DNA from: a virus
Taxonomy: Duplodnaviria; Caudoviricetes
Length of the DNA: 51,701 nt
Strand: one strand, 5' to 3'
IMG/VR virus record: IMGVR_UViG_3300037313_000136
Coordinates: 1-51,701 of that record
The notes beneath the pieces were generated by a model. It saw only the letters and a program-made list of their open reading frames with translations. It was not told the DNA's origin and did not search any database. The position numbers and the translations under genes are program-made. Every line of letters begins with the position of its first letter. The stretch's first letter is position 1. Of the stretch, positions 2,389-48,938 are shown one piece after another.

Positions 2389-2390
2389 CA

Positions 2391-3488
2391 ATGCCAACGC
2401 TTTATAATCCTGAAGTCTCTGCTTTTGGGCAATACACACCCAATTTCATTGTTGGTAATCCTCAGCATATCGCTGAAATAATGCTGCATCCATACAATGA
2501 ATCTGCGCTTAATTCTTGGCGCGCTCTAGGGCTGTATCCTGATGTGATAGCCATTATAGATAACACCAACAAGGGTGAGGCGGCACAGGTGAAAATGGCT
2601 AAGAGAGCTAGGACTGTCAAAGAAAACAAACCCGGTAAAATCCTTGAAGGGTTTACGTTGGGAGCTGACCCGGAATTGTTCGTGGTTGATACCGATGGAG
2701 TACCGGTCTGCGCGGATATGATACCCGGCACCAAGGATGAACCTTACAAGGTAGAATTTGGTGCAGTTCAGCGTGACGGTTTCGCCGCTGAATACAATAT
2801 TGACCCCTGTTCCACATTTGAGGAGTGGAACCGCAACCACAAGGCGGTTCAGGGGCAGCTACAAGACATGTTGCCGAAGGGCTTTAAGCTGGTGGCAACC
2901 CCGGCAGTTCGCTTCTCCCCGGAAGTCTTTGATGCTGCCCCTGACATGGCAAAGGAGTTGGGTTGTCAGCCTGACTGGAATGCGTGGGAGGCTGCGCTCA
3001 ATCCTCCACCACGTTTGCCCGATGATCCTCGTCTTAGGTGTACTGGTGGCCACATTCACGCTGGATGGTTGCCGAAGGGCGAAGAGGGTTACGATGTACA
3101 CGACACTCAGCACATGATGAATTGTTTTGATCTGACCAAACAGTTTGATTGGTTCCTTGGTACTTGGTCACTCAAGCATGACAAGGACGTGGAGCGTCGT
3201 CGTCTCTACGGTAAGGCCGGTTCGTGCCGAATAAAACCTTATGGTGTTGAGTATAGGGTTCTATCCAGTTTTTGGGTACTCGAAAAAGAACTGAGACTTG
3301 AGGTGTGGAACCGAGCTTGTCTCGCCATTACCTGCATGTCGAAGTACTTCTTGCCCGAACAAATCTCACCGGGGTTTAGTGATATTCTCCGAAGCTCCAT
3401 CAACAATGGACATTTGGACAGTAGCATAACATCTAATGTTAAGTTCCCCGTTAGCACTCTAACCCCTCCATTTTCTATGGCCGCCTGA
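2391..3488 (+). CDS. phiEco32-like COOH-NH2 ligase type 2
   Basis: TLGADPELF, VQRDGFAAEYNIDP, LGCQPDWNAW, GGHIH, RRLYGKAG and YGVEYRVLS; an alternative start near 2594 is possible. Confidence 0.88.
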   Translation: MPTLYNPEVSAFGQYTPNFIVGNPQHIAEIMLHPYNESALNSWRALGLYPDVIAIIDNTNKGEAAQVKMAKRARTVKENKPGKILEGFTLGADPELFVVDTDGVPVCADMIPGTKDEPYKVEFGAVQRDGFAAEYNIDPCSTFEEWNRNHKAVQGQLQDMLPKGFKLVATPAVRFSPEVFDAAPDMAKELGCQPDWNAWEAALNPPPRLPDDPRLRCTGGHIHAGWLPKGEEGYDVHDTQHMMNCFDLTKQFDWFLGTWSLKHDKDVERRRLYGKAGSCRIKPYGVEYRVLSSFWVLEKELRLEVWNRACLAITCMSKYFLPEQISPGFSDILRSSINNGHLDSSITSNVKFPVSTLTPPFSMAA

Positions 3489-3495
3489 GGTTAAT

Positions 3496-4257
3496 ATGGA
3501 ATACAAGAATTTCTTCGAGAACCAGAAAGAAGCAGCGATGCGTCTTCAGCAAACTGTCGTCCTGTACGATGGTTCGCCTGTGGAGATTGTGTGTGTTGCC
3601 GATCATCCTGATGGGATACTCAGGGCTTACATCAGACCCACAGGATATACACCTGCCGAGTTTGATAGTATGCCGAAGCCTTCTTCGTCGCACATGGCGA
3701 ACGCCGCGTACACTTCTAGTTTGGCTACATACATGGACACGTTCATCCAAGATAATCCCGGTTGTGGTATTATTCGCAAACATCTGAACTCACCACTGTT
3801 CAACAAGTTCAGGCCGTTTGAACTTGGAATGTACTGGAACCCGCCACATGTATATTATGTGGAGAGACAGCCTAATCGCCGAGTGGAGCAGGGCCTAATC
3901 AAACCCATGATCGTAGCCACGAAGCTTACACCAATTCCTGAGAAGGGTGAGAACGTCAGTGGTGACGTTGACTTATTTGGTCCTGAGATGAAGCGGTGCA
4001 TCATTGGTGAGCATCCAAGTCCCAAGCGGTGTTTGGAAGCTATCCATGATGATAGGCTTGACTGTAAGGCCGCAGCATTTGATCGCCACTTCGCATTGGT
4101 TCGTGGTCCAATCGGAACTCTGTTCCTTGCATACAAGAACAATGTGATTGGTCAGTTACCCAATGGTGACTATGACAAGGTTAAGCTAGGAAAAGCCTAC
4201 ACCTATTGTAAAGAGGCAGTTGCCGATTTACATCTATTTAACAATATCATTAGCTAA
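3496..4257 (+). CDS. Hypothetical protein of the amidoligase cluster
   Basis: 253-aa ORF with GAGG RBS between the two ligase genes. Confidence 0.8.
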   Translation: MEYKNFFENQKEAAMRLQQTVVLYDGSPVEIVCVADHPDGILRAYIRPTGYTPAEFDSMPKPSSSHMANAAYTSSLATYMDTFIQDNPGCGIIRKHLNSPLFNKFRPFELGMYWNPPHVYYVERQPNRRVEQGLIKPMIVATKLTPIPEKGENVSGDVDLFGPEMKRCIIGEHPSPKRCLEAIHDDRLDCKAAAFDRHFALVRGPIGTLFLAYKNNVIGQLPNGDYDKVKLGKAYTYCKEAVADLHLFNNIIS

Positions 4258-4278
4258 GAAAGGACAAAGGTTGTTGAA

Positions 4279-5349
4279 ATGCGGGAACCATTCGTAGAAA
4301 AGGTTACAAGGCAGAAACCGGGTTTCAACGTTGGAGTTATTCTTGGTTCCAAGACGCCACAGAAGGGTAAAGTTGGAATTGAAATCGAGCTAGAGGGAAA
4401 GAATTTTCTCTATCACGAAAACGTTCCGGCTCCTTGGGTGTACAAGGAAGATGGGTCACTTCGCGGGGAAGAGAGTGCCGAGTACGTCTTGAAGAACCCC
4501 ATCGAGTTCAATGAGGTTGAGAAGGTTCTCAAAACCTTGTTTGACAAACTTGCCGAGAAGAAGGCAAAGTTTGACGACAGCAACAGGACAAGCATCCACG
4601 TACACCTGAACTGTCAGGAATTCTATCTCAACAGGCTCGCAGCTTTCATGGGTCTGTGGTTCTGCCTAGAGGAAATTCTGACCCAGTGGTGTGGTGAGCA
4701 TCGTGTTGGCAACCTGTTCTGCCTGAGGAGCCGCGATGCAACAGCAATCATCTCACAGTTACGGAAGTTTCTCAAGTCTGATGGCAAGTTCGAGCTATCA
4801 GACAATCTCCACTATGCTGGCCTTAACGCCAACGCACTACGCAAGTTTGGCTCGTTGGAAATCAGGACGATGCGGGGAGTATCCGATCCCGATGTAATCA
4901 AGGATTGGGTGGAAATACTTCAACGTCTGTATGAATATTCAGCTGAGTTCAATGATCCTCGCAATGTATGTAGCTTGTTCTCAGGCCACGGACCATTACA
5001 GTACTTCTATGAAGTTCTTGGTGACAAGGCTTCGTGTGTTCGGGCTGGTGTGAACTGGACCGATGAAGAAATCAGAGCAAGCATGTATCGTGGTATCCGT
5101 CTCGCTCAGGATATTTGCTATTGCCGAGATTGGGACTTGTATCGTCCTCAGAGTTTGAAGCCTGACCCATTCAAGCGAGATATGAAGAAGGTTGCCAAGA
5201 AGGTTATTGGGTTTGACTATGAAGATAACCCTAGTCCATTCTCTATGGAAGCATTTCAGCAATACATACAAGGAGCAACAGCAGGGACAGTATATGTTAG
5301 CGGGTCTGATCCTTGGAATAATAGTGTTTCTTTTGATTTACCAAACTAA
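4279..5349 (+). CDS. Putative amidoligase (COOH-NH2 ligase)
   Basis: GIEIELEG, EDGSLRG, EYVL, TSIHVHLN, YAGLN and GSLEIR. Confidence 0.88.
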   Translation: MREPFVEKVTRQKPGFNVGVILGSKTPQKGKVGIEIELEGKNFLYHENVPAPWVYKEDGSLRGEESAEYVLKNPIEFNEVEKVLKTLFDKLAEKKAKFDDSNRTSIHVHLNCQEFYLNRLAAFMGLWFCLEEILTQWCGEHRVGNLFCLRSRDATAIISQLRKFLKSDGKFELSDNLHYAGLNANALRKFGSLEIRTMRGVSDPDVIKDWVEILQRLYEYSAEFNDPRNVCSLFSGHGPLQYFYEVLGDKASCVRAGVNWTDEEIRASMYRGIRLAQDICYCRDWDLYRPQSLKPDPFKRDMKKVAKKVIGFDYEDNPSPFSMEAFQQYIQGATAGTVYVSGSDPWNNSVSFDLPN

Positions 5350-5364
5350 GAAGGAGAAGTAAAC

Positions 5365-6336
5365 GTGACCACAACTAAGTATTTTGTTTATCCGTACACC
5401 ACCATGTCTGCCAGTTCCATTGTTCTTGCTGAGGAACTGGATGCTAAACGCATCAAGCTGAACCACAGTAATTACCATCACAAGCCAGAGAATGTGATTG
5501 TGAACTGGGGTAACAGTGGGTGTCCGTATCCACAGGCACTTAATCCTGCTGATGCAATTTCGGATATTATCAACAAGGTGAAGTTCTTCCAGAAAACGGC
5601 AGGACTTGCTTGTGTTCCGAAGTTCGCCACGACCAAGGCACAGGCAGCCAATCTATCATTTCCGGTGGTGTGTCGTACGGATATTGTTGGAGCTGATGGG
5701 GAAGGCATTAAAATAGCTGAAACACTCGCTCAGTTGCCTTCTTGCAGCTTGTACACTGAGTATATGGACAAGACCAGTGAGTATCGTATTCACCTCGGGC
5801 GGCTGCCTAACGGTGAAGTGACGGTGATCGCTCGTCAGAAGAAGCACAAGTCTGCTGCATTCACTGGCGATCAGCGTATCTGGACGGGATCGGAAACGAA
5901 GCTTGAGTGGATTGACACGGCAGTTTCTCAGGTAGTGTACGCTGCCAAGGAAGTGTTCGCTAAGTTCCCCGGACTTACGTTCGGTGCTTTCGATATTGTT
6001 TACAACAACAGTACGGAGAAGGCCTATGTCCTTGAGATTAACTCGGCCCCGATGCTCACAGCAAAGACGGCTGAGGCGTATGCTACATTCTTCAAGAACT
6101 ACAAAGGAGCAGAAAGTCCGACTATGGAAACAATTGTTGCACCGCCGCAGAGTGAGACTGTTACTAGCAGTCCAACCCCGAACCCCGCTCCGGCAAGTTC
6201 GACGGGTCTGTATGGGTTTGTGAAGAACCAACTTGCTCAGGGCCACATCACCAAGGCTCAGCTTGAGCAGTACACTCCACCAATTACAGAGGAGATTTTG
6301 ATTGGCAACTACATCAACGCGATTACCGCAGCATAA
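5365..6336 (+). CDS. ATP-grasp peptide ligase (RimK/glutathione synthetase-like)
   Basis: IVNWG, FPVVCR, EYRIH, FGAFDIV and VLEINSAP. Confidence 0.88.
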   Translation: MTTTKYFVYPYTTMSASSIVLAEELDAKRIKLNHSNYHHKPENVIVNWGNSGCPYPQALNPADAISDIINKVKFFQKTAGLACVPKFATTKAQAANLSFPVVCRTDIVGADGEGIKIAETLAQLPSCSLYTEYMDKTSEYRIHLGRLPNGEVTVIARQKKHKSAAFTGDQRIWTGSETKLEWIDTAVSQVVYAAKEVFAKFPGLTFGAFDIVYNNSTEKAYVLEINSAPMLTAKTAEAYATFFKNYKGAESPTMETIVAPPQSETVTSSPTPNPAPASSTGLYGFVKNQLAQGHITKAQLEQYTPPITEEILIGNYINAITAA

Positions 6337-6547: not shown

Positions 6548-6751
6548 ATGCGTTGTAACATATGCGATAGCCTGCTGTCGCAACCCCGATATAATAGAGA
6601 ACTAGAAGCGTGGGAACCATGTGATACTTGCATGGAAGTTATCCAAGAATGTCTAAATGACCTTAAGGATAACGCGGTCTTTGTCGAAGACGACGAGTTT
6701 GCCGCCATTGATGAAGCAGGAATTCCCCTACCAATTGAAGAAAGTACTTGA
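6548..6751 (+). CDS. Small CxxC-CxxC protein with acidic tail
   Basis: AAGGA RBS; CNIC and CDTC. Confidence 0.7.
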   Translation: MRCNICDSLLSQPRYNRELEAWEPCDTCMEVIQECLNDLKDNAVFVEDDEFAAIDEAGIPLPIEEST

Positions 6752-6776
6752 CAAGCCATACTAGTTATGGTATAAT
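6748..6776 (+). promoter_or_regulatory. Consensus sigma70 promoter upstream of primase/polymerase
   Basis: TTGACA-agccatactagttatgg(17)-TATAAT. Confidence 0.88.
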
Positions 6777-10695: not shown

Positions 10696-10724
10696 TTGAC
10701 AAATGCTAACTAACATGGTATAAT
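10696..10724 (+). promoter_or_regulatory. Consensus sigma70 promoter upstream of SSB
   Basis: TTGACA-aatgctaactaacatgg(17)-TATAAT. Confidence 0.88.
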
Positions 10725-37384: not shown

Positions 37385-39652
37385 TTAGATTTTCTGCTTG
37401 AGTGATACGTTGTCGATTGTGCCATTGAACAGCGCGGAATCCGCCTCAATCGAAATGTCCGAACCCGTTGCGGTGAAGTCGAACTGAAGGCTTCCGCTCG
37501 ATCCCAATGCCGCTGAAGTCACCAGGATCGCAGCGCCGTTGGTCGTGCTGTTGTTGACCCGGAGCTTCGATCCTGAAGTCATCGTATAGTCGAGCGTCAT
37601 CCGGTAGACGTTTCCCGCAGTCGTAAGCCCAGTTTCCCAACAGAGCTGTGCGCCGCCCGAACAGTTGAGTTTGCCGCCAGAAACCGTGCAGCCCGAGCCG
37701 GGGGTTGGCGGGGGTGCGGCAGATGCGAACGTGCCGTTGCTGAACAGCTCGGAACCGAACGTGAAGGCGTTAAAGGTCTTGGTCGTATCGAAGAAGCCGG
37801 TTGGGTCTGCGGGATTGGTTTCGCGGATCGTGAAGACCAGTGGCCCACTCCCGGTAATCAGCGAGGTATTTGTGAGCGTGACCACGCCGGTCGAGGTATT
37901 GAGCGAAAATGCTCCGGCGGGATAGCTCGAGATCATCGAAATGGTTGATGAGCTAAATGTCTTTGTGACCGTTCCGATAACGGTCCCGTTGGCCGCCCCA
38001 ACCTGAACGTCGGACATGGTACCCGACATGGCGAACAGCTTCCGAGTCCCGGCCTGATAGTCGATAATCGCTTGCCGCTCTGGCAGATGCGCCTTGTCGT
38101 ATGTTGCGCCGAGGACCGAAGGGAAGATGTGCCCGTAGATGCCGTCCGGCGTAGAAAGCGGCTCGCAGAACATGAACATCGTGATGCGCGACAGGCCCGC
38201 GCCCTGCATCTTCTGCAAATAATAGAGCGTGTAATCGTACATCAGCGGATCGGTCTTGATCGCCGTCAGCGTCGTCAGGTCGTTGAGGTCGTGTCCGAAG
38301 CTTGCCTCATAGGTGACGTATTCGAACCCGTAGAGGTCTGCGATTGTCTTGTGCTGAGCGGCGAGGGCGGCAATGGCGTCGATCCCAAGCTTTGCTGCCG
38401 CGAAGAAGGTTGCGGTGGTTCCAGTGAACGTCGCGTCAAGTCCCTGCGCGTTCCAATACGGGGCCGTGGCATAGGCCTTGATGTTCGCAAGCCAACCCTG
38501 CGTATTGGCATAAGCGAGCGCGAGCGAGAACGGCGTCGTCTGCGCGTGCTGAAAGCACAGCATCGGCTTGAGGCGCGAGGTCTGACCTGCGAAAACGCTC
38601 AGCCAAATATCGTGGACGCGTTTGCAGACGTGAATATAGCGAAGGTGCAGCGGAGTCGTGCCGTCGCCACCTTGGACCGGGTAGGTCGCTGAAACAGCGG
38701 GATCGGCGGCCTCCGCCGCCATCCTATGGTTGGCATCGTAGGTGCTGTTCCACACCTCGTTGTCGATCTCGATGTAGATGATTTTCGAAGTGTCGAGGTT
38801 GTCGCGGACGTAGGTGGCGAAGCGGGTGATGTAATCGTCATCGGCCATTGACGTGATCGGAATGTGGACCGCATCACCGGTGAAGGCGTTGGCGGCTGCG
38901 ACGATCATCTCGACCGGGACGCCGTCACCACCGTATGTGCCCTCCTGCCACGTGCTCGCGGTTGGCGTGTTGCGGTTGGCCCAGAAGATTTTGTAGGTCG
39001 GTGAGGCGGCGGTCCCGCCACCCCATGCAGCCGTCCATACTCCGCCCAGCTTTTCTACCGGCGGAAGCCATTTGGTGAAGCGGAGCGTGCCCGTGTACTT
39101 GTTAAGCTCGGTCACATATTGAGGGGTCAAAGCACCTTGCGTAGTGCTGTCCCCGTTCTTAATGAAGCGAATGTTGCGGACGTAATTGCCGCCGGTCGTG
39201 TCGAAGGTGTAGGTGAACTGGATTCCATCGGTCGAGATGGTCGCCGGAGTATCCCACTGAACGGTTCGATTCACGGAGTCATAGCTGGCGGCAACCTGGG
39301 TCGCTCCATTGAGATTCATCGAGCTGGTGGTAGCATCGACAAAATTGCCGTCCCAGTACATCGTGTACCGGGTACTCGGCTCCAAATAGCAGGTCCACAG
39401 TGCACACTCGCCCGCGCTCGGGAAGGTTTTCGGCCACTTCTCCTGAACCGAATCGAGATTGGCGGACGGGAATAGTCCCAAATCGCTGCCGAACATGCTG
39501 GCGCGGAGGTTCGGGCCAGTGTTGGGAGAACCGTGAAACCGCTCGACGAACGGCGTTGCGTACTGCCAACCCGCAATATCGCTCTGGTTGATCCCAACCT
39601 TCATGCTGGACAGAGCTGTGCGGCTGCGGAGGTGCAGTCTGACACGACCCAC
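37385..39652 (-). CDS. GC-rich glycoside hydrolase-like (clan A type) protein with cadherin/CBM-like C-terminus; probable receptor-binding depolymerase
   Basis: GVPVEMIV, DDYITRFATYVRDNL, IYIEIDNEVWN, APYW and VTYEAS. Confidence 0.65.
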   Translation of the reverse strand: MGRVRLHLRSRTALSSMKVGINQSDIAGWQYATPFVERFHGSPNTGPNLRASMFGSDLGLFPSANLDSVQEKWPKTFPSAGECALWTCYLEPSTRYTMYWDGNFVDATTSSMNLNGATQVAASYDSVNRTVQWDTPATISTDGIQFTYTFDTTGGNYVRNIRFIKNGDSTTQGALTPQYVTELNKYTGTLRFTKWLPPVEKLGGVWTAAWGGGTAASPTYKIFWANRNTPTASTWQEGTYGGDGVPVEMIVAAANAFTGDAVHIPITSMADDDYITRFATYVRDNLDTSKIIYIEIDNEVWNSTYDANHRMAAEAADPAVSATYPVQGGDGTTPLHLRYIHVCKRVHDIWLSVFAGQTSRLKPMLCFQHAQTTPFSLALAYANTQGWLANIKAYATAPYWNAQGLDATFTGTTATFFAAAKLGIDAIAALAAQHKTIADLYGFEYVTYEASFGHDLNDLTTLTAIKTDPLMYDYTLYYLQKMQGAGLSRITMFMFCEPLSTPDGIYGHIFPSVLGATYDKAHLPERQAIIDYQAGTRKLFAMSGTMSDVQVGAANGTVIGTVTKTFSSSTISMISSYPAGAFSLNTSTGVVTLTNTSLITGSGPLVFTIRETNPADPTGFFDTTKTFNAFTFGSELFSNGTFASAAPPPTPGSGCTVSGGKLNCSGGAQLCWETGLTTAGNVYRMTLDYTMTSGSKLRVNNSTTNGAAILVTSAALGSSGSLQFDFTATGSDISIEADSALFNGTIDNVSLKQKI

Positions 39653-41520: not shown

Positions 41521-43160
41521 GTTGTACCGTCACGATAAACTGGAACGATGTTGGAGCCACCACCAACAACGGCTGCACCAAAGTTGCCTGCGGCAACAAC
41601 GGTTGAGTCACTGACCATAGCCTTTCCGAAACCAGTCGAAGGAAGGGTAGCTACGGTGTAAGTTGTAGTGAATCCGATTGATTTCAGGTTATTTAGATTA
41701 CCGTATACAATTGAGTTAATTCCATCCCCACCGAACTGAAGGTCTTGCGGATCGCCGATACGAATAATCGTTGGAGCGCTGTTGTTCTGATCCTTCTTAT
41801 TACTGAAAATCCAGAGGTCAGTTGTATCGCTTGTTATGTTGGCCGGATCAGAATACCAGAAGTTATTGGTCAAGGTAACAGCTCTGCAAGTCTTGCTACA
41901 GAAGTCTACGAATGACAAACTGTTGCCTGAAATAAGCAGACCACTTGTACTACCACCAGAAATTCTAATACTTGGATACGTGACAACATTAGAGAACAGA
42001 TTTCCCATAATCACACCAGTCATAGGTGCTAAGTTGGGATCAATCCATGCCACGCTGACATTGGTTGCGTCTCCAAGCCAGTTACCAGTAAACATACCCA
42101 CGTTAATTGCGGCACCCAAAGCAACACTGGCGCTTGAGAAGTCGCAATAGATGGCCTTAGGCATACCGCCTGTGAAGCCATCGTTAGTCCCTTCGAACCA
42201 ATTCCCAGCAATGTGCCAACCCTGACTGGGGTTGATAATAGCTCCAATGGTAACGTTCTGGAAGGTGTTGCGTGTAACGACAATACCGTTAGAGTAAAGA
42301 ATGTTTCCTACTCCACGTTCCTTCTGACCTCGTATACAAGCTTGTGCCCATCCAAGGTTATTGTCCACTACCGAGGAAAGAATTGCTCCTTCCAAACTAA
42401 TGCAGCTACGAGCTGAGTGGATTCCACCAAGACCCCCAACCAGACACCGCTCCACTAGCGCGTAAGCAGGATCAGGCGTTGAAGGAGCGGCTAGGTTAGT
42501 AAAGGCGATCAGATCACCAGTAAAGGAGGACGAAGAATTCCGAACACCAAGGTTGGAAACTGTAACTGCGTAAGAACTGGCACCGTTGATAAAAGGACTC
42601 GAACCACCACCAGTGTAAATCAACTGAGACGGTGGCGGAATGTGATAACCAATACCACTACCGGCAGCGCCTACCAAACGAATGTTGTACTTGTTGTTTA
42701 GATTGATTTGACCCGAACAAAGAGTGTGGGCCGGAATGTACACTATGCCCCCACCAACTGCTTCAGCGGCTGCAATAGCCGCGTTAACAGCGGTGACATC
42801 ATCTGTGCCAGTAATGGTGGCTACGTTAGTCCAGTCGGTGGCAGCACCATCACACTTAGCTCCATAGTCCCTAATATCAAAAACTGGCAAGCCGGAAAGC
42901 TCACCAGACTGTACAGGATTAAGAGCTGTGATAAGTGCGTTGACCTGACCAAGATTCACTGCATCTGAGTTACTCACGCCATCCGCTAGGTTACGAACAG
43001 CGAAGTGGTTCATATCCAGATCGACCTGCATACTATTAGTGCCGTCACCGGTTCGGGACAGCATCTCATCCAGTAGGCTGGCAATCTCAGTGAAGTTATC
43101 GTTCAGGGCTGCAATGGCATCGTAGGCCGAGAGGATATTGGTGGGTGTAAAACGGGACAA
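41505..43160 (-). CDS. Tailspike with pectin-lyase-like beta-helix
   Basis: N-terminal anchor LNDNF..LSRTG..NSMQVDLDMN; IRDYGAKCDG, DDVTAVNAAI and GGIVYIP; Asn ladder. Confidence 0.82.
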   Translation of the reverse strand: MSRFTPTNILSAYDAIAALNDNFTEIASLLDEMLSRTGDGTNSMQVDLDMNHFAVRNLADGVSNSDAVNLGQVNALITALNPVQSGELSGLPVFDIRDYGAKCDGAATDWTNVATITGTDDVTAVNAAIAAAEAVGGGIVYIPAHTLCSGQINLNNKYNIRLVGAAGSGIGYHIPPPSQLIYTGGGSSPFINGASSYAVTVSNLGVRNSSSSFTGDLIAFTNLAAPSTPDPAYALVERCLVGGLGGIHSARSCISLEGAILSSVVDNNLGWAQACIRGQKERGVGNILYSNGIVVTRNTFQNVTIGAIINPSQGWHIAGNWFEGTNDGFTGGMPKAIYCDFSSASVALGAAINVGMFTGNWLGDATNVSVAWIDPNLAPMTGVIMGNLFSNVVTYPSIRISGGSTSGLLISGNSLSFVDFCSKTCRAVTLTNNFWYSDPANITSDTTDLWIFSNKKDQNNSAPTIIRIGDPQDLQFGGDGINSIVYGNLNNLKSIGFTTTYTVATLPSTGFGKAMVSDSTVVAAGNFGAAVVGGGSNIVPVYRDGTTWRIG

Positions 43161-43245
43161 GAAGCTTCTGTTCCTTAGATATCGCAGATATTCTGCTCAT
43201 TAGAATCTCAACCGGAGGTCGATAGACCGACGCTCCTATACACAT

Positions 43246-43274
43246 ATTATAACATATTTAAATCTAAATGTCAA
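43246..43274 (-). promoter_or_regulatory. Consensus sigma70 promoter heading the structural arm
   Basis: TTGACA-tttagatttaaatatgt(17)-TATAAT. Confidence 0.88.
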
Positions 43275-43363
43275 GCTTTATTTTCGGGGCTCAGAACGCT
43301 GCGAAGCTGCGCTTCACTTCGCTGCGCTCATCCTAAAGAAATCAAGTACTTACAAAAAAAGAC

Positions 43364-43392
43364 TTGACAAACCCTTCAGTATATGTTATAAT
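43364..43392 (+). promoter_or_regulatory. Consensus sigma70 promoter, divergent from 43246-43274
   Basis: TTGACA-aacccttcagtatatgt(17)-TATAAT. Confidence 0.85.
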
Positions 43393-43619
43393 ACTCTTAG
43401 TTGGCACGCCGGTAAATATATCTATTACTAATTATAGAAGAAACTATTAGCATATGGGCGATCCATATATAAGTCAATAGTCAAATCATAAAATATCTGT
43501 AGTCCTTCCGAGAATTCTCCATTTTCTTGGTGGGACTTTTTTGGTGTGTGGTGCAGCAGACAGGCCACCCCCACTCCCCCGGCTCCCCCGCAGCATGATA
43601 TAACGTCCCCGGCATTGCT

Positions 43620-43683
43620 ATTGCGAGTCATTCTCAGCACTCCTGAGCGGCACGTGTCCCTGCTAATGCGAATCATTCTCAAC
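43620..43683. promoter_or_regulatory. Two Fur-box-like sites 45 bp apart
   Basis: ATTGCGAGTCATTCTCAGC (43620-43638) and AATGCGAATCATTCTCAAC (43665-43683). Confidence 0.55.
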
Positions 43684-43696
43684 TGTCTGTAATCCA

Positions 43697-43713
43697 TGCA
43701 ATATCCGTGCCAA
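43697..43713 (-). promoter_or_regulatory. sigma54 (-24/-12) consensus site
   Basis: TTGGCACG-GATA-TTGCA. Confidence 0.6.
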
Positions 43714-43821
43714 TCCTCGCGCGTAAGTCTATCTCTCCGCGTACACCTGAATGATACAACATATCATCTCATCAACCAGTAACTATTTGATACTAACTTT
43801 CGATATGGGTATTCTTACAGC

Positions 43822-43849
43822 TTGCAACCATCCGGCGTTCTGCTAGTTT
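43822..43849 (+). promoter_or_regulatory. Candidate early promoter
   Basis: TTGCAA-16-TAGTTT (GCTAG -10 context) directly before the structured leader. Confidence 0.4.
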
Positions 43850-43852
43850 TGT

Positions 43853-44000
43853 TGCTGTCGCCGATGCAGACGCTCCCGACACGCTCTCGTGAGAGCAACA
43901 GGGACGCAAACCCGGACGCGACAAACATAGTCATGGGTTGTCCTAGTGACTGCCCACCAATCAGGCCCCTCTAGGGCGTACGAATACGTACACTATGGGC
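43853..44000 (+). ncRNA. Structured leader RNA (two multibranch domains)
   Basis: TGTCG/CGACA closing a domain with GCTCTC/GAGAGC; CATAGT/ACTATG closing a domain with GCCC/GGGC and GTACG/CGTAC. Confidence 0.45.
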
Positions 44001-44022
44001 CGTTAAAATGGGATGACGTTTA

Positions 44023-44301
44023 ATGACTAGGCATCAGCGGCGCAAGGCTGCGCGTGCCAGAAAGGATGCTAAAGGCGAGTTGCTGAACAGTCGTGCACTG
44101 CACGTTCTACAGCAAGCGAAGCTGAAGGCGAACTTGATGGAACGCAAAGCCAAGCGAAGTCCGAAAGGGCTAGGCAACCGTGGCATTTACTCGGGTATGG
44201 GTTTGTATCCTGCGCCGGGATATGGTACGGGAGCGTTCAAAGAGAAGCCATTGAGTGAGCGGCAATGCCGTGAGCACAGGGCACTTGACAAACAACGCTA
44301 G
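44023..44301 (+). CDS. First early protein, basic, with N-terminal arginine-rich motif
   Basis: MTRHQRRKAARARK. Confidence 0.7.
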   Translation: MTRHQRRKAARARKDAKGELLNSRALHVLQQAKLKANLMERKAKRSPKGLGNRGIYSGMGLYPAPGYGTGAFKEKPLSERQCREHRALDKQR

Positions 44302-44304
44302 GTG

Positions 44305-44855
44305 CATTACCTAGTCACACATAACTATCGCAAACGGTACGCCGCAAACGATAGTGCGGATTAAGGCAAGCCAGTCTCTTGTCTAGGTAGCTGGAACGGC
44401 GGCCCTCACCTTGAATGTCACAAGGTAGAGAAAGCATCCTCTGTCCCGTAGGGATATGATGGTAAGCTATGCGCTCTAGGCGCGGGCTGTTAGTCACGCT
44501 AAAGCGGTGACGCACAATCTATCATCGTGCGTTGCTGTGGCGGCTAGGCTGGTTGTAGGCGACACGCAAGTGTTGTCCCGGATTATTCCGAACCGGCGAC
44601 AAGATTAACGGTGACTGTGCAAATAACCTAGGGTTAGTGTATTGAGTTACACGTATGGTCGCGGTACGCCCGTTCATTGCGTTGTAAGTGATGGACGCGA
44701 GCTAGAAAGCTCCTCGGTAATGGCAATCCTTTGTGGTTGCGGCAACAACCTAACAAGGTTGTGATGGCAAGCGCCGAAGTTGTGTATGAGGCACAAGCCT
44801 AGGCCAACAGGTATTAATGAGCTAGCGGACGCGCTACGGGAGTTGCCCGCTTGCT
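44305..44855 (+). ncRNA. Candidate large structured ncRNA (about 550 nt)
   Basis: No + strand ORF in the track; more than a dozen consecutive helices with G-U pairs on the + strand. Confidence 0.65.
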
Positions 44856-44879
44856 TTCACAGCTTTGGAGGGAAAGACA

Positions 44880-45134
44880 ATGCTGGTACTTATCGGACAA
44901 ACTGAAGAATTGAATTGTTGGGCCGATCAGCCACACGCCTATAACGTGTACTATCGGAACGAACAAAGCGGGAGATTGTGCCGCTATTGCATAACTCCAA
45001 TGTCTCGTGAACTTGCTGAGGAATATGCTCGCAAGTTTAATGAGCGATACTTGGATATACACGGACGCGGGAAAGCTTTTCCCAATGGCCGTGGCTATTA
45101 TCCGTACAGTAAAGCGTGGGTTGATTTCCACTAA
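44880..45134 (+). CDS. Hypothetical early protein
   Basis: GGAGG RBS and ATG 44880. Confidence 0.7.
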   Translation: MLVLIGQTEELNCWADQPHAYNVYYRNEQSGRLCRYCITPMSRELAEEYARKFNERYLDIHGRGKAFPNGRGYYPYSKAWVDFH

Positions 45135-45147
45135 GAGGATTAAGAAA

Positions 45148-45360
45148 ATGGTTATGCTCCGTAGTCCTAGCACGGCAGGCGAACGTAAGTTCGATGTGTA
45201 CGTGCGGGAAGTCGGCGGATACGTCCACAAGGTTGGAACAGTGTTCGCCAACAACAAGATACAAGCAGATACTAAGGTCCGCATGATGTACGGGCGAACG
45301 CTAACTGATGGGCGCGTCGCTTATGCGGTGGACCCGATGCCAATGGGAGCGAACGCATGA
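45148..45360 (+). CDS. Hypothetical early protein
   Basis: GAGGA RBS and ATG 45148. Confidence 0.65.
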   Translation: MVMLRSPSTAGERKFDVYVREVGGYVHKVGTVFANNKIQADTKVRMMYGRTLTDGRVAYAVDPMPMGANA

Positions 45361-45467
45361 GGAAACATGATGCACTTCAATCGCGCTTGTGGCGCGAGCA
45401 GATACAGCGAGACTTGCAAGGTTATCGGCATCCGCTGAAAAATAATCGAAGCCAAGAACAAAACTAA
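45357..45467 (+). CDS. Small early peptide (36 aa)
   Basis: GGAG RBS and ATGA coupling. Confidence 0.5.
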   Translation: MRKHDALQSRLWREQIQRDLQGYRHPLKNNRSQEQN

Positions 45468-45618
45468 TCTATCATCGTCGTTGCACACACGTTTGCAATA
45501 GGCACACAGAGAAGCTGGTGCATGATATGACTTTGCATTGACGCCTCTGTGTGTCTTCTCCAAGCGTGTGCTTGGCCGTGGACAACCTACGGGATTACCA
45601 CAAAAGGAGAAGTGAATT

Positions 45619-46404
45619 ATGGCACGTAGAGCAGCAGGATTACTTGTCGGTTTGACTGCTATTTCAGCAGGCATCCGCGAATTGAAGGGCGTCATTAACA
45701 ACGTGTACGACCGTGCACAGCTTGTTGGTGTGTCCATCATCAACCATGACCTGAATGGCGGCAATGACGGCTCACCTACTGGTGACTGTTCAAAGGCCAA
45801 GGATTTGGTCAATGTGCTCAAGACGCAGGAAGATAAGCGTAACATGGTCGCTTGGCTTGCGTATTTCGGCAACATCGGCGTGAAGATGGAAAACGGTACT
45901 GCTACCGAGGTCCGTCACTTTCAGGCCGACAACAAGCGTTACCGTCAGCCTGACTTGGACGGCGCGAAGGCTAACAAATGGTATGAACCCTATCTGCCCA
46001 ACGGCGAGAAGGCTCATTGGTTTGAAGGCCCGGCCAAGCCGCTCTATACGCCGGGAACCCTTGGCGACATTGGCGACAATGTTATCACGTTTGCTGAGCG
46101 GTTCCTTGGAACTGATCGACGCATCGGCCAGCTTTATGACAAGGTTGATGCAGGCAACGGTGACAAGGTTAATCGGTACAATCTCAGTGATGAGGAAATC
46201 CAGCAGGCTGAGGCGCTGTTCAATGGCGTCCGCAAGTTTGGCTTGATGCTCATGGCTCGGGAACGTGCCGAGGAATACACGGCTGAAGTCGTGAAGCTCA
46301 ATGAGTTTCTCGATCAGGCAACCAAGGTTATCAACGATGTGAATAACATCGGAGAGAACCCAACGGAAACCACGACTGAAGATGTTCAGGAAATGGTTGC
46401 CTGA
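45619..46404 (+). CDS. Hypothetical early protein (261 aa)
   Basis: AAGGAG RBS; long ORF. Confidence 0.8.
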   Translation: MARRAAGLLVGLTAISAGIRELKGVINNVYDRAQLVGVSIINHDLNGGNDGSPTGDCSKAKDLVNVLKTQEDKRNMVAWLAYFGNIGVKMENGTATEVRHFQADNKRYRQPDLDGAKANKWYEPYLPNGEKAHWFEGPAKPLYTPGTLGDIGDNVITFAERFLGTDRRIGQLYDKVDAGNGDKVNRYNLSDEEIQQAEALFNGVRKFGLMLMARERAEEYTAEVVKLNEFLDQATKVINDVNNIGENPTETTTEDVQEMVA

Positions 46405-46485
46405 ATAATCCCCTGTATCTAGCTTTCATCCCTCCGTTGGCTAGATGCTCGGCGCTGCTCCGACGCTAGAAAATATCGGGCACTT

Positions 46486-46665
46486 AATTTATATAGACTG
46501 TCGCAATCGGGTTGATTGGGATAACGACATACAACTTATAATGACCATTGATGGCCTAGCCTAGAGTATGGTCGGAGTTGGACAGACGCAATCTAATTTG
46601 TTGGTTGCTACCAGCTGTCTAGTTATCTAATCCTTTCAATGGGATATGGGCAGTCTTTATAAGTT
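46486..46665 (+). ncRNA. Candidate structured RNA (about 180 nt, closed multibranch)
   Basis: AATTTATA-T-AGACTGTC / GGCAGTCT-T-TATAAGTT closing stem; nested GATTGGGATAAC/GTTATCTAATC. Confidence 0.5.
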
Positions 46666-46678
46666 GGTGAGAATTATT

Positions 46679-46765
46679 ATGGTTGTATATGCCATATACG
46701 CCTATGTAATAATTGTTGTTGTAGTCGCTCTTGTATGGAGTAAACACAATGGCAAAGACAAGTGA
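46679..46765 (+). CDS. Small single-pass membrane peptide (28 aa)
   Basis: GGTGAG RBS; MVVYAIYAYVIIVVVVALVWSKHNGKDK. Confidence 0.55.
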   Translation: MVVYAIYAYVIIVVVVALVWSKHNGKDK

Positions 46766-46994
46766 CAAACCAATCTATCATCGGCGCATGTCAGCGGCGC
46801 AGTTAAGGCGTCGTTGGCGTAATAAGCGAACACATCAGCAGCTGTATGACGCCAGCGATTGGCTCCGGTCTGTTGAAGTTGACGCCACTGGATTTGCGAG
46901 AGTTTGGATTGGCGTCGGTCTGCAAATAGCGGCGTCACACTTGGAAGAACTAGCCAATGAGATATTGGTGGAGGATATAATCAATGACCAATAA
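46749..46994 (+). CDS. Hypothetical early protein
   Basis: GGAG RBS and ATG 46749. Confidence 0.65.
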   Translation: MAKTSDKPIYHRRMSAAQLRRRWRNKRTHQQLYDASDWLRSVEVDATGFARVWIGVGLQIAASHLEELANEILVEDIINDQ

Positions 46995-47160
46995 ACCACT
47001 TCACATCATATTTGATGGTCCGCCCGGACCTGAGGCTGGTCGTTTTGTAGAGTGTGAAACTCCCGATGGTCAGAGCATAAACGCAGGAGAATGGCGTGAG
47101 AGGGATGATGGTTATTGGGAATTAATCATTCCTGACCGCATTTCGATGGACGATAATTAA
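46984..47160 (+). CDS. Hypothetical early protein (58 aa)
   Basis: GGAGG RBS; FDGPPGPEAGRFVECE. Confidence 0.7.
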   Translation: MTNKPLHIIFDGPPGPEAGRFVECETPDGQSINAGEWRERDDGYWELIIPDRISMDDN

Positions 47161-47190
47161 GTTACTCAACGGCATAGTAGGAGAACGAAC

Positions 47191-47790
47191 ATGCCAAACA
47201 GTAAGCGCGAAACCAAGCCCAAGCTTGGTATTAAAGCCGATAAGCCTGCAAAGACGCGGGTTGAGGAAATGTTCGGAGGCGTTGGCTACGTCAGTCAAGA
47301 CGGGCCAGTGATGAAGGTGGATGCGGAAATCCCACTGCCTGAACACGCTGACCCTGAACCTGACCAACCATCTGTACGAGATATTAAGGATCGGGTGGAA
47401 GGATTGTTTCGCTCTATCGGTACGGCGGCCTTGCCCGATACAGTCTTTCCATCCGGTACTCGCAACAATGGTCCGCAAGCTGCTGAGTTTGTTGTGGCCG
47501 AACAGCTTAAGAAGCTGGCTGAGAAGCGGTACGAAGAAGCCAAGAAAAATGGCAAGGACGCTGGTTGTTTTGGTGATGAAACCAAATACGTTGCTGGCGA
47601 GACTGTTGAGGTTTATCGTACGCCCAACTTCACATTCAGTGTTCAGCGCAATCAGGACAGCAACATGATTGACCGTAAGGCAGTTGAAGACTTGCTGCGT
47701 GATATTGCGCCAACCAAATGGCAGGAATTGCTGAAGCGTTGTGAGAAGCCGAAGGCAGGAGCCACACGGTTTATTGTTGCGCTTCGGTAA
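47191..47790 (+). CDS. Hypothetical early protein
   Basis: AGGAG RBS; 199 aa. Confidence 0.8.
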   Translation: MPNSKRETKPKLGIKADKPAKTRVEEMFGGVGYVSQDGPVMKVDAEIPLPEHADPEPDQPSVRDIKDRVEGLFRSIGTAALPDTVFPSGTRNNGPQAAEFVVAEQLKKLAEKRYEEAKKNGKDAGCFGDETKYVAGETVEVYRTPNFTFSVQRNQDSNMIDRKAVEDLLRDIAPTKWQELLKRCEKPKAGATRFIVALR

Positions 47791-47829
47791 ACGAGGTCAC
47801 TCACTAACGGGTGACACAAAGGAGAGAGT

Positions 47830-48015
47830 ATGAAGCAGACCATTTGGTACGGCTCGACACCGCAGGGTGTTACCTTCGCCAAGTCGAAGAACCAGCTTGA
47901 GCAGTCAAGCCAGCTCTCCGGCAACATTGGAAGCTTCACTGTGGACGGTGAAATCACTGGGTTGAACTACGTGGACAACACGCAGTCATCTCAGTCATCG
48001 ACACAGCACGCTTAA
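47830..48015 (+). CDS. Hypothetical early protein
   Basis: AAGGAG RBS. Confidence 0.65.
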   Translation: MKQTIWYGSTPQGVTFAKSKNQLEQSSQLSGNIGSFTVDGEITGLNYVDNTQSSQSSTQHA

Positions 48016-48587: not shown

Positions 48588-48938
48588 ATGCACGTCCATG
48601 ACAAGATATTTGTGTACGGAACTCTTAAGCAAGGGTTCGGTGCCAACAGCATTCTACAAGGTAGAGCGGAGTTTATAACTGATGATCGGATTGAAGGATC
48701 GTTGTATAATTTGGGAGCCTTTCCGGGGTATAAAACCTCGGGTTCCGGCATGGTCGCTGGTGAAGTCTATGAGATCACCGACGAGAACCTTCCTGCCATG
48801 CTTGACAACTATGAGAACTACCCAAGTTTGTACACAAGAGTAAAGATGCACACCGAAAAGGGATACAACGCTTGGGTGTATGTAATCAATGAGAACATGT
48901 ACGAGAAGAACCTAATTCAAGAGGGAGTTTGGGCATAA
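48588..48938 (+). CDS. Gamma-glutamylcyclotransferase (AIG2-like)
   Basis: IFVYGTLKQG, GAFPG, GEVYEI, LDNYE, YTR and AWVY. Confidence 0.9.
   Translation: MHVHDKIFVYGTLKQGFGANSILQGRAEFITDDRIEGSLYNLGAFPGYKTSGSGMVAGEVYEITDENLPAMLDNYENYPSLYTRVKMHTEKGYNAWVYVINENMYEKNLIQEGVWA

Follow-up and report, generated by a model that had tools for sequence, protein, structure and literature searches.

What, if anything, is encoded by the roughly 500 bases of non-coding DNA at the head of the early genes of this soil phage (positions 44302-44864 of the window, i.e. of the whole stretch of 51,701 nucleotides that was analysed)? The phage belongs to a clade of podoviruses from soil and rhizosphere that has not been cultured and whose closest cultured relatives are the Zobellviridae. 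A sequence-only reading had taken this region for a large, ornate and unrecognised non-coding RNA of the + strand, and our analysis supports that view through the absence of an open reading frame (ORF), covariation, G-U pairs, the lack of Rfam matches and contigs from RNA libraries. Because it encodes no protein, has undergone compensating mutations in relatives and is present in RNA libraries, we regard the element as a real structured RNA, and very probably as one representative of a genuine, previously undescribed family of ~0.5-kb structured phage RNAs whose role is unknown. Its parts and the neighbouring features are collected in Table 1.

Table 1. Features of the early region (positions are those of the window)
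Feature	Position	Strand	Sequence and remarks
Rightward early promoter	43364..43392	+	TTGACA-17-TATAAT with TG extension; 12/12 consensus match; function inferred
Leader hairpin	43501..43543	+	Hairpin, then U6, in conserved leader; terminator- or attenuator-like; MFE -18.6 kcal/mol, z -4.47
Basic protein gene	44023..44301	+	Encodes a very basic 92-aa product (MTRHQRRK...); opens the early operon and immediately precedes the RNA
Promoter-like sequence	44285..44313	+	TTGACA, 17 nt, TACCTA; ends 10 nt before P1; not canonical
Conserved structured RNA	44321..44812	+	Family-wide 5' core, then group A middle and 3' domains; homologous to L002, G001 and L017
P1	44324-30/44349-55	+	ACTATCG/CGATAGT (7 bp); part of element 44324..44355
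P1a	44335-44	+	CGG-TACG-CCG (3 bp, UACG loop); inside P1, across a symmetric CAAA/CAAA internal loop
P2	44365..44383	+	Hairpin GGCAAG/CTTGTC, loop CCAGUCU
GGUAG, P3, GGCC	44386..44404	+	Invariant GGUAG, P3 (GCUG-GAA-CGGC) and invariant GGCC; invariant alignment columns
P4	44408..44426	+	ACCUUG/CAAGGU (CCTTG/CAAGG 44409-13/44421-25); conserved loop AAUGUCA
P5	44435..44461	+	UGUCCC/GGGAUA, loop GUA (44442-47/44451-56); possible outer CAUC/GAUG
GCGC/GCGC hairpin	44471-74/44480-83		Window-specific
P8	44505..44537	+	ACGCAC/GTGCGT (44510-15/44527-32); 11-nt loop AAUCUAUCAUC (44516-26); MFE -14.2 kcal/mol, z -4.11
P9	44548..44597	+	GCUGGUU/AACCGGC (44548-54/44591-97); encloses GGCGACAC-GCAA-GTGTTGTC (44558-77)
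P10	44611..44662	+	Three-way junction stem GTGACTGTGC/GTATGGTCGC (44611-20/44653-62); encloses P11 and P12
P11, P12	within 44611..44662	+	P11 AACC/GGUU; P12 GUGUA/UACAC, loop UUGAGU
P13	44671..44697	+	CGTTCATTGC/GTGATGGACG (10 bp, 44671-80/44688-97); loop GUUGUAA
P14	44699..44722	+	GAGCU/AGCUC (44699-703/44708-12), then conserved linker CUCCUNGGUAAUGG
P15, P16	44723..44762	+	P15 GCAAUC/GGUUGC (44723-28/44735-40), linker UGCGGCAA, P16 ACAACC/GGUUGU (44745-50/44757-62)
Poorly conserved tail	44813..44879	+	Runs to the ribosome-binding site (RBS) GGAGGG (44867-72) of the next ORF (44880-45134)

Neither an ORF longer than 41 aa on the + strand nor one longer than 66 aa on the - strand was found inside the region. 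Small ORFs running across it, which would have refuted the non-coding reading, were looked for, and no conserved one was detected in 44302-44864: no similarity is seen between the longest ORFs found in the window and those of its close relative L002, and the RNA homologs are separated in alignments by frame-breaking indels. The degree of conservation of the RNA region (69-77%) is comparable to that of the flanking genes (74-78%). The tail that follows is not conserved in L002 or in G001, a second close relative, and the fold of 44815-64 is unremarkable (z -0.12). Downstream of the RNA the window has an 84-aa ORF, of which no relative was found in viral contigs, while L002, G001 and the more distant phages carry other small ORFs.

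Homologs of the RNA were identified in three close phages (group A: L002, G001 and L017) and in four more distant ones (group B), in both groups at the same place, in one copy each and on the + strand. The copy of L017 is truncated and was recovered by a DNA pattern scan of viral contigs. Usable sequences amount to eight only, four of them from one metagenome, and a further locus, L032 (truncated 45-aa ORF, no RNA, downstream sequence not homologous), was omitted from all counts. The covariance model R1 gave a single match in the window and one in each of 5/5 relatives' records. Searches of 50,697 phage records with the DNA of 43200-45200, or by tblastn with the 261-aa protein (of which 22 homologs were identified) and the 92-aa protein, returned no match; a protein-pattern scan of metagenome contigs (alignment A2) yielded 190 pattern matches and no relative, and DNA pattern scans of viral contigs retrieved only the known relatives and L017. 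Five pattern matches, four on metagenome contigs (L018-L021) and one on a genome contig (L022), were discarded as unrelated chance matches, none of the five having an R1 match. In Pseudomonas phage PA11, which shares the genome layout, R1 gave 0 matches at E<=5.

The evidence that carries our conclusion comes from these few relatives. In a plain MAFFT alignment of the four group A sequences, 15 of the 29 pairs tested had changed on both sides and 91.3% of cells were paired; none of 500 shuffles reached these values, and slid controls gave 27-42% of cells paired with 1-3 pairs changed on both sides. Comparison of the 3' half between the window and L002 led to a similar picture, with 85.7% pairing over 50 pairs, 11 of them changed on both sides (0/500 shuffles). 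The 85-nt 5' core (P1/P1a/P2/P3) is common to groups A and B, and 14 of its 21 pairs had changed on both sides among nine distinct rows from both groups, again with 0/500 shuffles reaching the observed figure, in an alignment that was fitted to the model. The layout P1/P1a/P2 was also found automatically in seven of the eight sequences, where 0-2 of 300 shuffles attained the observed values; L031 was mis-picked (17/300).

All 11 helices that the sequence-only reading had listed are present in the sequence at their places, and this part of the reading held; support from relatives was obtained for most of them, 8/11 keeping their pairing through two-sided changes. The GCGC/GCGC hairpin and the three-way-junction stem P10 are present but have no counterpart in relatives (for P10, none in L002 or G001) and are thus specific to the window, and the ACGCAC/GTGCGT helix P8 is backed only in part. 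In the group A alignment both sides had changed in 4/5 aligned pairs of P1, 2/3 of P1a and 5/6 of P4, with 100% of cells paired in each, and in 3/6 pairs of P5 (95.7% paired); P4 appears with other letters and retained pairing, as read by eye, in variant RNA-library contigs. The tetraloop of P1a, likewise read by eye, is UACG or UGCG in six of the eight sequences (the automatic search counts the closing U-G pair as stem and therefore prints 2-nt loops). The eight sequences spell the stem of P2 in six different ways, always at the same position ahead of GGUAG, and 4/5 of its pairs have changed on both sides in the 5' core alignment (A8). P3 varies little and is therefore untested by covariation; its closure by GGU...GCC is possible, individual folds pairing GGU with GCC in 4/8 sequences. 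The stem of P8 has 1/7 pairs changed on both sides and 75-83% of cells paired, with L002 misaligned, and its loop is invariant in 4/4 group A sequences.

Farther 3', the stem of P9 is written with other letters in L002 (GCCGUUU/GAACGGU) and G001 (GCUGAU/AUCGGC), and the two-hairpin insert that it contains in the window (44558-44590, a GCAA tetraloop stem plus CGGA/UUCCG) is found nowhere else in group A, being missing from L002, G001 and the variant RNA-library contigs; peripheral hairpins in general come and go between strains. P11 never varies in the 3' half comparison, and P12 has a counterpart in L002 (GCUAC/GUAGC), seen by eye and misaligned in alignment A5. Between the window and L002, P13 has 5/10 pairs changed on both sides and four on one side (95% of cells paired), P14 1/5 (100% paired), P15 one and P16 three; in G001, P14 reads GGGUU/AACUC and the place of P15 is taken by an 8-bp stem that 1/300 shuffles matched. 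The linker following P14 is conserved in the relatives' alignments. As a separate observation, GGUAG (44386-90) could pair over a long range with CUAUC in the P8 loop (44519-23), a contact that covariation cannot test because both sides are invariant. An anti-Shine-Dalgarno reading of a conserved CUCCU was set aside, only 4 bp being possible.

A referee may object that the hairpins are chance products of a spacer, or that unrecognised small ORFs are hidden among them, and that the region has no function as RNA. What favours this explanation is folding energy, since the z-scores are no better than those of neighbouring coding windows: -3.30 and -2.57 for the two halves of the region versus -3.51 and -3.49 for flanking coding windows, the stretch as a whole scoring -3.14 on the + and -2.47 on the - strand. 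In a partial scan of the genome (100 of ~184 windows, 12 shuffles each, the RNA region not among them) seven of the 100 windows had z <= -3.13. The folding z-score against shuffles, put forward in the sequence-only reading as a check, is thus non-discriminating in this genome, and we have dropped folding energy as evidence because coding neighbours score as well. Shuffle tests of single hairpins, mostly non-significant alone (e.g. 42-105 of 300), were given no weight either, since short stems arise easily in short segments. Nonetheless, covariation far above shuffled and slid controls, conservation equal to that of the flanking genes and the absence of a conserved ORF all but exclude this explanation.

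Many of the conserved pairs are G-U (e.g. GU in 4/4 sequences at one P5 pair) and would become A-C mismatches on the opposite strand; since they work only on the + strand, the RNA is assigned to it, and the earlier claim that the G-U pairs fit this strand held in the group A alignment. The same pairs count against a DNA-level element, be it an origin of replication, a site for packaging or the primer RNA of a T7-like replisome, whose hairpins would act at the level of DNA or within an R-loop. Such an element could be invoked on the grounds that the region lies near the divergent promoter region and that a family A DNA polymerase and a primase/helicase are among the products of the phage genome. 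However, neither iterons nor long inverted repeats were found inside 44302-44864, whose GC content is above the genome mean and which is not AT-rich, and we consider this alternative very unlikely. The high density of CTAG that had also been pointed out held as a count, with eight sites in 44302-44864 versus ~1.5 expected (140 in the whole window) and 34 versus 19.0 in shuffles over seven family members (z 3.7), most sites not being conserved in position among relatives.

Transcription of the RNA is inferred from promoter sequences. The consensus promoter lies 930 nt upstream, is conserved in L002 and G001 and is likely to be the main source of transcripts through the RNA. The leader hairpin, whose stability none of 200 shuffles equalled, is present in L002 and partly deleted in G001. 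The TTGACA noted in the sequence-only reading is indeed present (44285-90), no canonical -10 box follows it and the promoter scan did not list it. Six of the eight sequences do share a TTGAC, 17 nt, TAMNTR arrangement placed 30-39 nt before the RNA core, inside codons in some of them and after the stop codon in L026, and given this recurrence a weak promoter belonging to the RNA itself is still a possibility. Under this scheme, the RNA would be made immediately on infection by the host sigma-70 RNA polymerase, mostly, it may be supposed, by read-through from 43364 and to some extent perhaps from the weak promoter ~10 nt before P1.

RNA libraries, which make up 13 of the 24 runs listed and hold 20-36% of the sampled words, provided sightings of the sequence. 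Contigs from 4/4 soil/rhizosphere metatranscriptome runs examined cover parts of 44344-44765, and three RNA-library contigs (two from run X12 and one from X14) show 0 other letters with respect to the window. No contig of the four RNA runs fell on 42000-43900 or 44814-45014, an absence of cover that proves nothing, and the depth of the window-identical contigs of run X12 (16.7-18 over the RNA versus 2.5 at 47125-47334) cannot rank regions. Contigs of this kind give no information on the ends, strand or level of an RNA, and carry-over of DNA into the libraries is not excluded.

The protein encoded upstream has 114 homologs, all unnamed, that form a conserved alignment, and measures 77-92 aa in RNA-bearing phages. 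The RNA core comes after its ORF in the window as in 7/7 distinct relatives, and nine of the ten loci retrieved with this ORF have an R1 match, the tenth being that with the truncated ORF. There is some circularity in this argument from synteny, given that the basic ORF itself served to find the group B loci, and in L002 a 66-aa ORF is inserted between gene and RNA; therefore, tight adjacency is not required. AlphaFold2 predicts a long, arginine- and lysine-rich N-terminal helix (residues 3-39, block-mean pLDDT 88-96) and a second helix at residues 79-91, with a disordered stretch between the two. Searches of the protein against Pfam (E<=0.1), PHROGs and PDB sequences gave no match, and neither did the ESM Atlas, where the best score, 0.76, is below the level of a usable lead. 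The lack of any Pfam, PHROG or PDB match leaves it outside the known families of lambda N-like antiterminators, to which its likeness is limited to a basic N-terminal helix in general.

We infer that the RNA acts in its own right, as RNA, and most likely within a ribonucleoprotein (RNP) formed with this basic protein. In this model the N-terminal basic helix would dock on the 5' core, made up of P1 and its A-rich internal loop, P1a, P2 and GGUAG-P3-GGCC, and the lineage-specific 3' domains would be the effector, controlling early transcription or translation or capturing a host factor. This RNP mechanism is the one we prefer, with doubt still slightly outweighing confidence: it is inferred without binding data, the protein matches no RNA-binding family, and the basic helix could equally bind DNA.

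The RNA may never exist as a separate molecule, since no terminator closing it was found and, in group B, the RBS of the next ORF directly follows its last helix. The main rival to the RNP, which we keep as a possibility, is a segment of the polycistronic early mRNA that acts in cis and is never free, such as a processing or stabilising element, a translational control of the small ORFs that follow or a nut/put-like antitermination site. Besides the group B helix, it is favoured by the failure to find a + strand terminator from the 43364 promoter up to the genes that follow the RNA, by one RNA-library contig that is continuous from the basic ORF into the RNA, by the terminator-like hairpin in the leader and by the arginine-rich N-terminus of the basic protein, which may resemble that of lambda N. 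On the other hand, the downstream ORFs differ between relatives while the RNA is kept, and it is therefore not the leader of one particular gene; furthermore, ~500 nt, more than 12 conserved helices and invariant loops go far beyond the needs of known cis elements. In nut sites boxA reads YGCUCUUWA and boxB is a short stem with a purine-rich, GNRA-like pentaloop. Against a nut-like site, no boxA-like motif with <=1 mismatch was found on the + strand of 43203-46039 (36 matches in the window versus a shuffle mean of 43.7), and the P1a loops are of the 4-nt UNCG type and not boxB-like. Nor are terminator-like sites enriched downstream (10 versus 6.9 and 15 versus 14.8 in shuffles).

A trans-acting RNA that needs no neighbouring protein, whether it titrates a host RNA-binding factor or a defence nuclease as a decoy or sponge, is a self-assembling, ROOL/GOLLD-like architectural RNA or is a ribozyme, appears unlikely to us. 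It would fit the invariant loops and linkers (AAUCUAUCAUC, GGUAG, GGAAAGC) beside covarying stems, the enrichment of A-rich motifs typical of tertiary contacts (AAAGC, 25 occurrences versus 9.8 expected in the family word count, z 5.3), the peripheral hairpins varying by strain and expression from the immediate-early region. Nevertheless, no repeated protein-binding motif stands out in the family word-enrichment count, where CsrA-type GGA repeats are absent from the list of enriched words, no known ribozyme or large-RNA model matches, and evidence for a defined 3' end was not found.

Going beyond the RNP that we prefer, a bolder reading can be entertained, in which the RNA, alone or with the basic protein, might form a higher-order particle in the first minutes of infection; conceivably, such a particle would commandeer one of the host's machines, be it RNA polymerase, the ribosome or a defence that targets RNA. 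Very few RNA classes of >400 nt still lack a known function, and if this were true the family would join that short list as a protein-partnered member from an early operon. Few RNA classes reach several hundred nucleotides and conserve many helices, and most of these have proved to be ribozymes, ribonucleoprotein cores or unexpected assemblies. Zobellviridae-like soil podoviruses devote ~1% of the genome to an RNA that no cultured member carries (none in PA11). Its clear genomic address, as the first non-coding element of a presumably host-polymerase-driven early operon, its obvious candidate partner and its natural occurrence in soil/rhizosphere metatranscriptomes make direct tests possible without the uncultured phage or its host.

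A match in Rfam would have removed the novelty of the RNA, and this check was run. Rfam 15, whose models include GOLLD, ROOL, OLE, HEARO, raiA, group I/II introns, phage pRNA, 6S, tmRNA and RNase P, gave 0 matches at the gathering threshold over the whole window, three weak hits at E<=10 in 43000-45500, all outside 44302-44864, and, at E<=1 over seven relatives' loci, one sub-threshold CRISPR-repeat hit on the opposite strand.

Among known systems, an arginine-rich peptide is combined with a structured RNA in the lambda N/nut pair and, as an analogy, in HIV Rev and its response element. Like lambda N/nut, our locus has a small basic protein, largely disordered or helical, with an arginine-rich N-terminus, encoded by the first early gene beside a structured RNA on the same transcript; unlike the nut site, the RNA follows the protein gene and is ~30 times larger, and unlike boxB, P1a has a UNCG-type loop instead of a GNRA-like pentaloop and forms part of a larger helix that contains an internal loop. 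The prohead RNA of phi29 is a structured phage RNA whose early promoter is located close to an end of the gene map, features that are shared here; however, the present RNA is about three times longer and has no Rfam match, and the phage has a conventional large terminase and portal and kin that are not phi29-like. The 8,495 candidate structured RNAs (DNAVirus_N) predicted from IMG/VR are motifs of 29-151 nt (PMC10690425), similarly intergenic, carried by uncultivated phage contigs and predicted by covariation, whereas our element extends over ~490 nt; a piece of it may be among them. GOLLD and ROOL are large ornate RNAs, often found in phages or prophages, of unknown function and reported to form RNA-only multimers (PMC12286853). 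The RNA described here is not their homolog, as no Rfam 15 model matches it, and yet it resembles them in being phage-borne, several hundred nucleotides long, rich in helices of which the peripheral ones vary, without known function and recognised by covariation; unlike them, it is shorter and is placed inside an early operon, beside a dedicated gene for a small basic protein.

Relatives of the phage carry the main evidence for a structured RNA. They were retrieved as IMG/VR records of identical gene order, reached through the 261-aa protein encoded 750 nt downstream of the RNA; with a DNA pattern from two invariant RNA blocks, which gave one further, truncated copy (L017, 5' 250 nt only) and only chance matches in metagenome and genome collections; and with the small basic upstream ORF as query, which returned 10 loci. 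After removal of duplicates, group A comprises the window, L002, L017 and G001, whose copy spans the ends of its record, and group B comprises L026 (L027 being nearly identical), L028, L029 (same record as L006) and L031; L032, with a truncated ORF and nothing homologous downstream, was excluded. All eight keep one order: basic ORF, 470-760 nt without a credible ORF, small ORFs and a 240-268-aa protein. A small ORF 3' of the RNA, with the motif (R/K)(V/I)G.(V/I).AN(N/M)....A..K, has homologs in L002, G001 and L026-L031 (both groups) and no match in Pfam or PHROG.

The unfitted MAFFT alignment of the four group A 5' halves (A3), with P1, P1a, P4, P5 and P8 marked by window coordinates, shows standard pairs in 91.3% of 115 cells and both sides changed in 15 of 29 pairs. 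Neither value was attained by any of 500 column shuffles, and moving the 3' partners by 1-3 columns left 27-42% paired and 1-3 pairs changed on both sides. Pairing is complete (100%) in P4, P1a and the inner five pairs of P1, with both sides changed in 5/6, 2/3 and 4/5 pairs respectively; in P5 it is 95.7% (3/6). The 3' half could be aligned over its whole length for just two sequences, the window and L002 (A5): 85.7% of cells in 50 pairs are paired and 11 pairs changed on both sides, unmatched in 500 shuffles, with slid controls at 31-39% and 0-3. P13 alone has five of its 10 pairs changed on both sides and four on one. The unpaired cells stem from P8, P9 and P12, where MAFFT misaligned L002; rows read directly show P9 and P12 formed with other letters in L002 and G001, and the latter retains P14, P15 and a P16-like stem, preceded by about 230 extra nt. 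This lineage-specific expansion, with its own stems, lies between the P12 region and P14. Covariation thus exceeds shuffled and slid controls, and an absence of function is all but excluded.

The initial 85-90 nt of group A can be recognised in group B as well. In this 5' core an invariant G-C closes P1, and an A-rich internal loop leads to P1a, whose loop reads UACG or UGCG; next come P2, with its outer G-C invariant, AAN-GGUAG, the small hairpin P3 and GGCCAC. An automatic layout search upstream of the GGUA anchor found P1 (6-9 bp), P1a (4-5 bp, including the closing U-G pair) and P2 (4-7 bp) in all eight sequences, the pick in L031 being wrong; dinucleotide shuffles of the same 80 nt attained the observed values in 0-2 of 300 cases for seven sequences and in 17 of 300 for L031. 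P2 occurs as six distinct stem sequences. The covariance model of the core (R1) matches every copy, always on the + strand (E 1e-11 to 1e-23, as expected by construction for training sequences), once in the window and once in each of five relatives' whole records, with no match in five unrelated loci or in Pseudomonas phage PA11. The early region of PA11 has unannotated gaps of 300-600 nt, also without an R1 match, where an early RNA, unrelated or strongly diverged, might lie. Alignment A8, which was fitted to the model and has 9 distinct rows including a spurious E 0.49 match, has 86.3% of its cells paired and both sides changed in 14 of 21 pairs (0/500 shuffles match); since fitting favours structure, A3 weighs more. 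Outside the core the conserved blocks and helices of group B are its own; P4, GGAAAGC, P5 and GGAUAGC there appear by eye to be homologs of those in group A, but single-sequence folds disagree on them.

The sequence-only reading had proposed a large, unrecognised + strand non-coding RNA, and this held. Its 11 helices were all found in place, yet two, a GCGC/GCGC hairpin and the stem of a three-way junction, lack support in relatives. The TTGACA it reported is present, as is its dense CTAG, with 8 sites in the RNA against 140 across the whole window. The CTAG excess is family-wide (34 observed versus 19.0 in shuffles, z 3.7), the sites mostly do not keep their position among relatives, and we read it as a probable by-product of a frame-free, stem-rich stretch. 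Folding energy is another matter. The + strand reaches -210.8 kcal/mol (z -3.14, 0/100 shuffles equally stable) and the - strand -178.3 kcal/mol (z -2.47), but the two 280-nt halves of the RNA score -3.30 and -2.57 and the flanking coding windows -3.51 and -3.49; in a partial genome scan that did not reach the RNA, 7 of the 100 windows covered had z <= -3.13 (12 shuffles each). The signal is not specific to the RNA, and because coding neighbours score as well, folding energy cannot carry the claim.

No ORF in the region exceeds 41 aa on the + strand or 66 aa on the - strand, no similarity links its longest ORF in the window to that in L002, and most indels separating homologs have lengths not divisible by three. 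G-U pairs recur at conserved positions: one P5 pair is GU in all four sequences, and UG/GU variants occur in P1, P1a and P8; the window-specific P10 stem has four G-U pairs. Read from the - strand, or in a DNA cruciform, each such pair becomes an A-C mismatch, and a DNA-level element is accordingly very unlikely. Conservation is higher in loops and linkers than in stems: all four group A sequences carry the identical 11-nt P8 loop AAUCUAUCAUC and three of them the P4 loop AAUGUCA. A-rich words are enriched (e.g. AAAGC, 25 versus 9.8 expected). Such a pattern fits an RNA with tertiary or partner contacts, not independent hairpins.

The record is a complete phage genome of 51,701 bases with terminal repeats. 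By portal protein its closest cultured phages are Zobellviridae (47-51% identity), namely Roseobacter phage CRP-4, Celeribacter P12053L, Lentibacter ICBM phages and Pseudomonas PA11, whose gene layout is that of the window. Divergent promoters separate the gene blocks, and the RNA accordingly lies within the rightward early transcription unit, about 930 nt from its beginning. The phage appears to depend on host RNA polymerase, with promoters of maximal strength.

Features of the phage genome and of related loci (window positions unless another locus is named)
Feature	Coordinates	Strand	Remarks
Structural genes	19130-43160	-	large terminase, portal, major head protein, tail proteins, 1,585-aa internal virion protein
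Replication/metabolic genes		+	primase/helicase, family A DNA polymerase, ribonucleotide reductase, glutamine-amidotransferase/amidoligase cluster
Divergent promoters	43364-43392; 43274-43246	+; -	between gene blocks; perfect 12/12 sigma-70 consensus, TG extension
Further perfect promoters	6748-6776; 10696-10724; 1168-1140	+; +; -	12/12 sigma-70, TG extension (five in all)
13-nt inverted repeat	43245-57/43381-93		formed by -10 regions of divergent pair
Leader	43399-44022		~620 nt, early promoter to first ORF
Leader hairpin	43501-43543		U6, terminator-like, z -4.47
Leader C-rich tract	near 43560-43590
Leader 21-nt direct repeat	43616-36 / 43661-81		90% identical; recurs in relatives
Basic ORF	44023-44301	+	92 aa
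TTGACA	44285-90
RNA	44302-44864	+	stretch analysed; conserved RNA 44321-44812
Unresolved fold	44465-44510
GCGC/GCGC hairpin	44471-83		no counterpart in relatives
Hairpin pair within P9	44558-44590		window-only insertion; missing in L002, G001 and variant RNA-library contigs
Three-way-junction stem	44611-20/44653-62		no counterpart in relatives
ORF 3' of RNA	45148-45360
Amidoligase region	1108-6336		glutamine amidotransferase-like, COOH-NH2 ligase, amidoligase, ribosomal protein S6 glutaminyl transferase-like genes; likewise in PA11
Gamma-glutamyl cyclotransferase-like ORF	48588-48938
755-aa ORF	37385-39652	-	55-59% GC vs ~47% genome; no PHROG match; possibly a recently acquired tail or receptor-binding module
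Additional 66-aa ORF, L002	4493-4693		between basic protein gene and RNA; own TTGACA immediately upstream; absent from window, G001
Expansion, G001 (join of L009 + L012)	~1800-2100 of join
Unannotated early gaps, PA11 (L033)	42594-43211; 43338-43641; 44336-44690

Among 24 public runs listed for the stretch, 13 are rhizosphere metatranscriptomic libraries holding 20-36% of sampled words; the other 11, from soil or rhizosphere and marked 'DNA?', hold 94-100%, five being possible sources of the record. Logan contigs from four RNA runs, matched to 42000-48000 at >=85% likeness, fall on the RNA within 44344-44765 in every run. Three (X12 44360-44512, X12 44483-44621, X14 44522-44672) show no letter difference from the window, diverged-strain contigs retain P1 and P4 with other letters (read by eye in their loose ends), and one bridges the basic ORF and the RNA. 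Such contigs give no ends, strand or level, and DNA carry-over into the libraries is not excluded. As no terminator-like site was found on the + strand of 43100-45700, read-through from the 43364 promoter is the simplest source of the transcript. TTGAC, 17 nt and a TA-initial hexamer (TACCTA, TACATA, TAAGTG, TAAATA or TAAGTA) lie 30-39 nt before the core in six of the eight sequences, within basic-ORF codons in some and after the stop in L026. This points to a possible conserved signal that would set transcription to begin only a few nucleotides from P1; the usual final T is missing from the hexamer, however, and the site was not called by the promoter scan.

The leader, 75-91% identical to L002 and G001, is conserved as well as or better than coding DNA; operators, an attenuator or another structured RNA could lie within it. 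Its terminator-like hairpin makes an antitermination scheme attractive under the main rival reading, a purely cis role of the RNA in the early mRNA, which remains possible. Against this, the + strand of 43203-46039 has no boxA-like motif at up to one mismatch, the loop of P1a does not resemble boxB, terminator-like sites are not enriched downstream over chance, and the genes 3' of the RNA vary between relatives. The one constant neighbour is the basic ORF. The 114 homologs of its product, all unnamed, fall into two length classes; the N-terminus (MTRHQRRK.AR.RKDAK) is nearly invariant, and no known family matches in the databases searched. In the AlphaFold2 prediction residues 3-39 form a single long helix (block-mean pLDDT 88-96), the middle is disordered and a short helix lies at the C-terminus. 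Because a small arginine-rich helical protein is encoded beside a large structured RNA, we propose a ribonucleoprotein of the two, in which the 5' core common to both groups would be the binding platform. We prefer this mechanism to each rival, with slightly more doubt than confidence in the absence of binding data. A trans-acting RNA independent of the protein, serving as decoy, in assembly or as ribozyme, is unlikely and ranks below the cis role.

Searches of Rfam 15 returned no match at gathering score for the whole window, and nothing relevant for 43000-45500 at E<=10 or for seven loci of relatives at E<=1; the full-text literature searched describes no such element. What comes closest is the collection in PMC10690425, where 8,495 candidate motifs, all short (29-151 nt), were drawn from IMG/VR; a fragment of the RNA may be among them, their supplementary tables not having been covered. 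It is very likely that the RNA is real and, as far as Rfam and searchable literature go, undescribed. The set is small, at eight sequences, the fold of the middle section is unresolved, and neither transcript ends nor binding have direct support; within these limits we consider it in all likelihood a new family among the large structured phage RNAs of unknown function, one with a tie to a dedicated small basic protein that is both unusual and testable.
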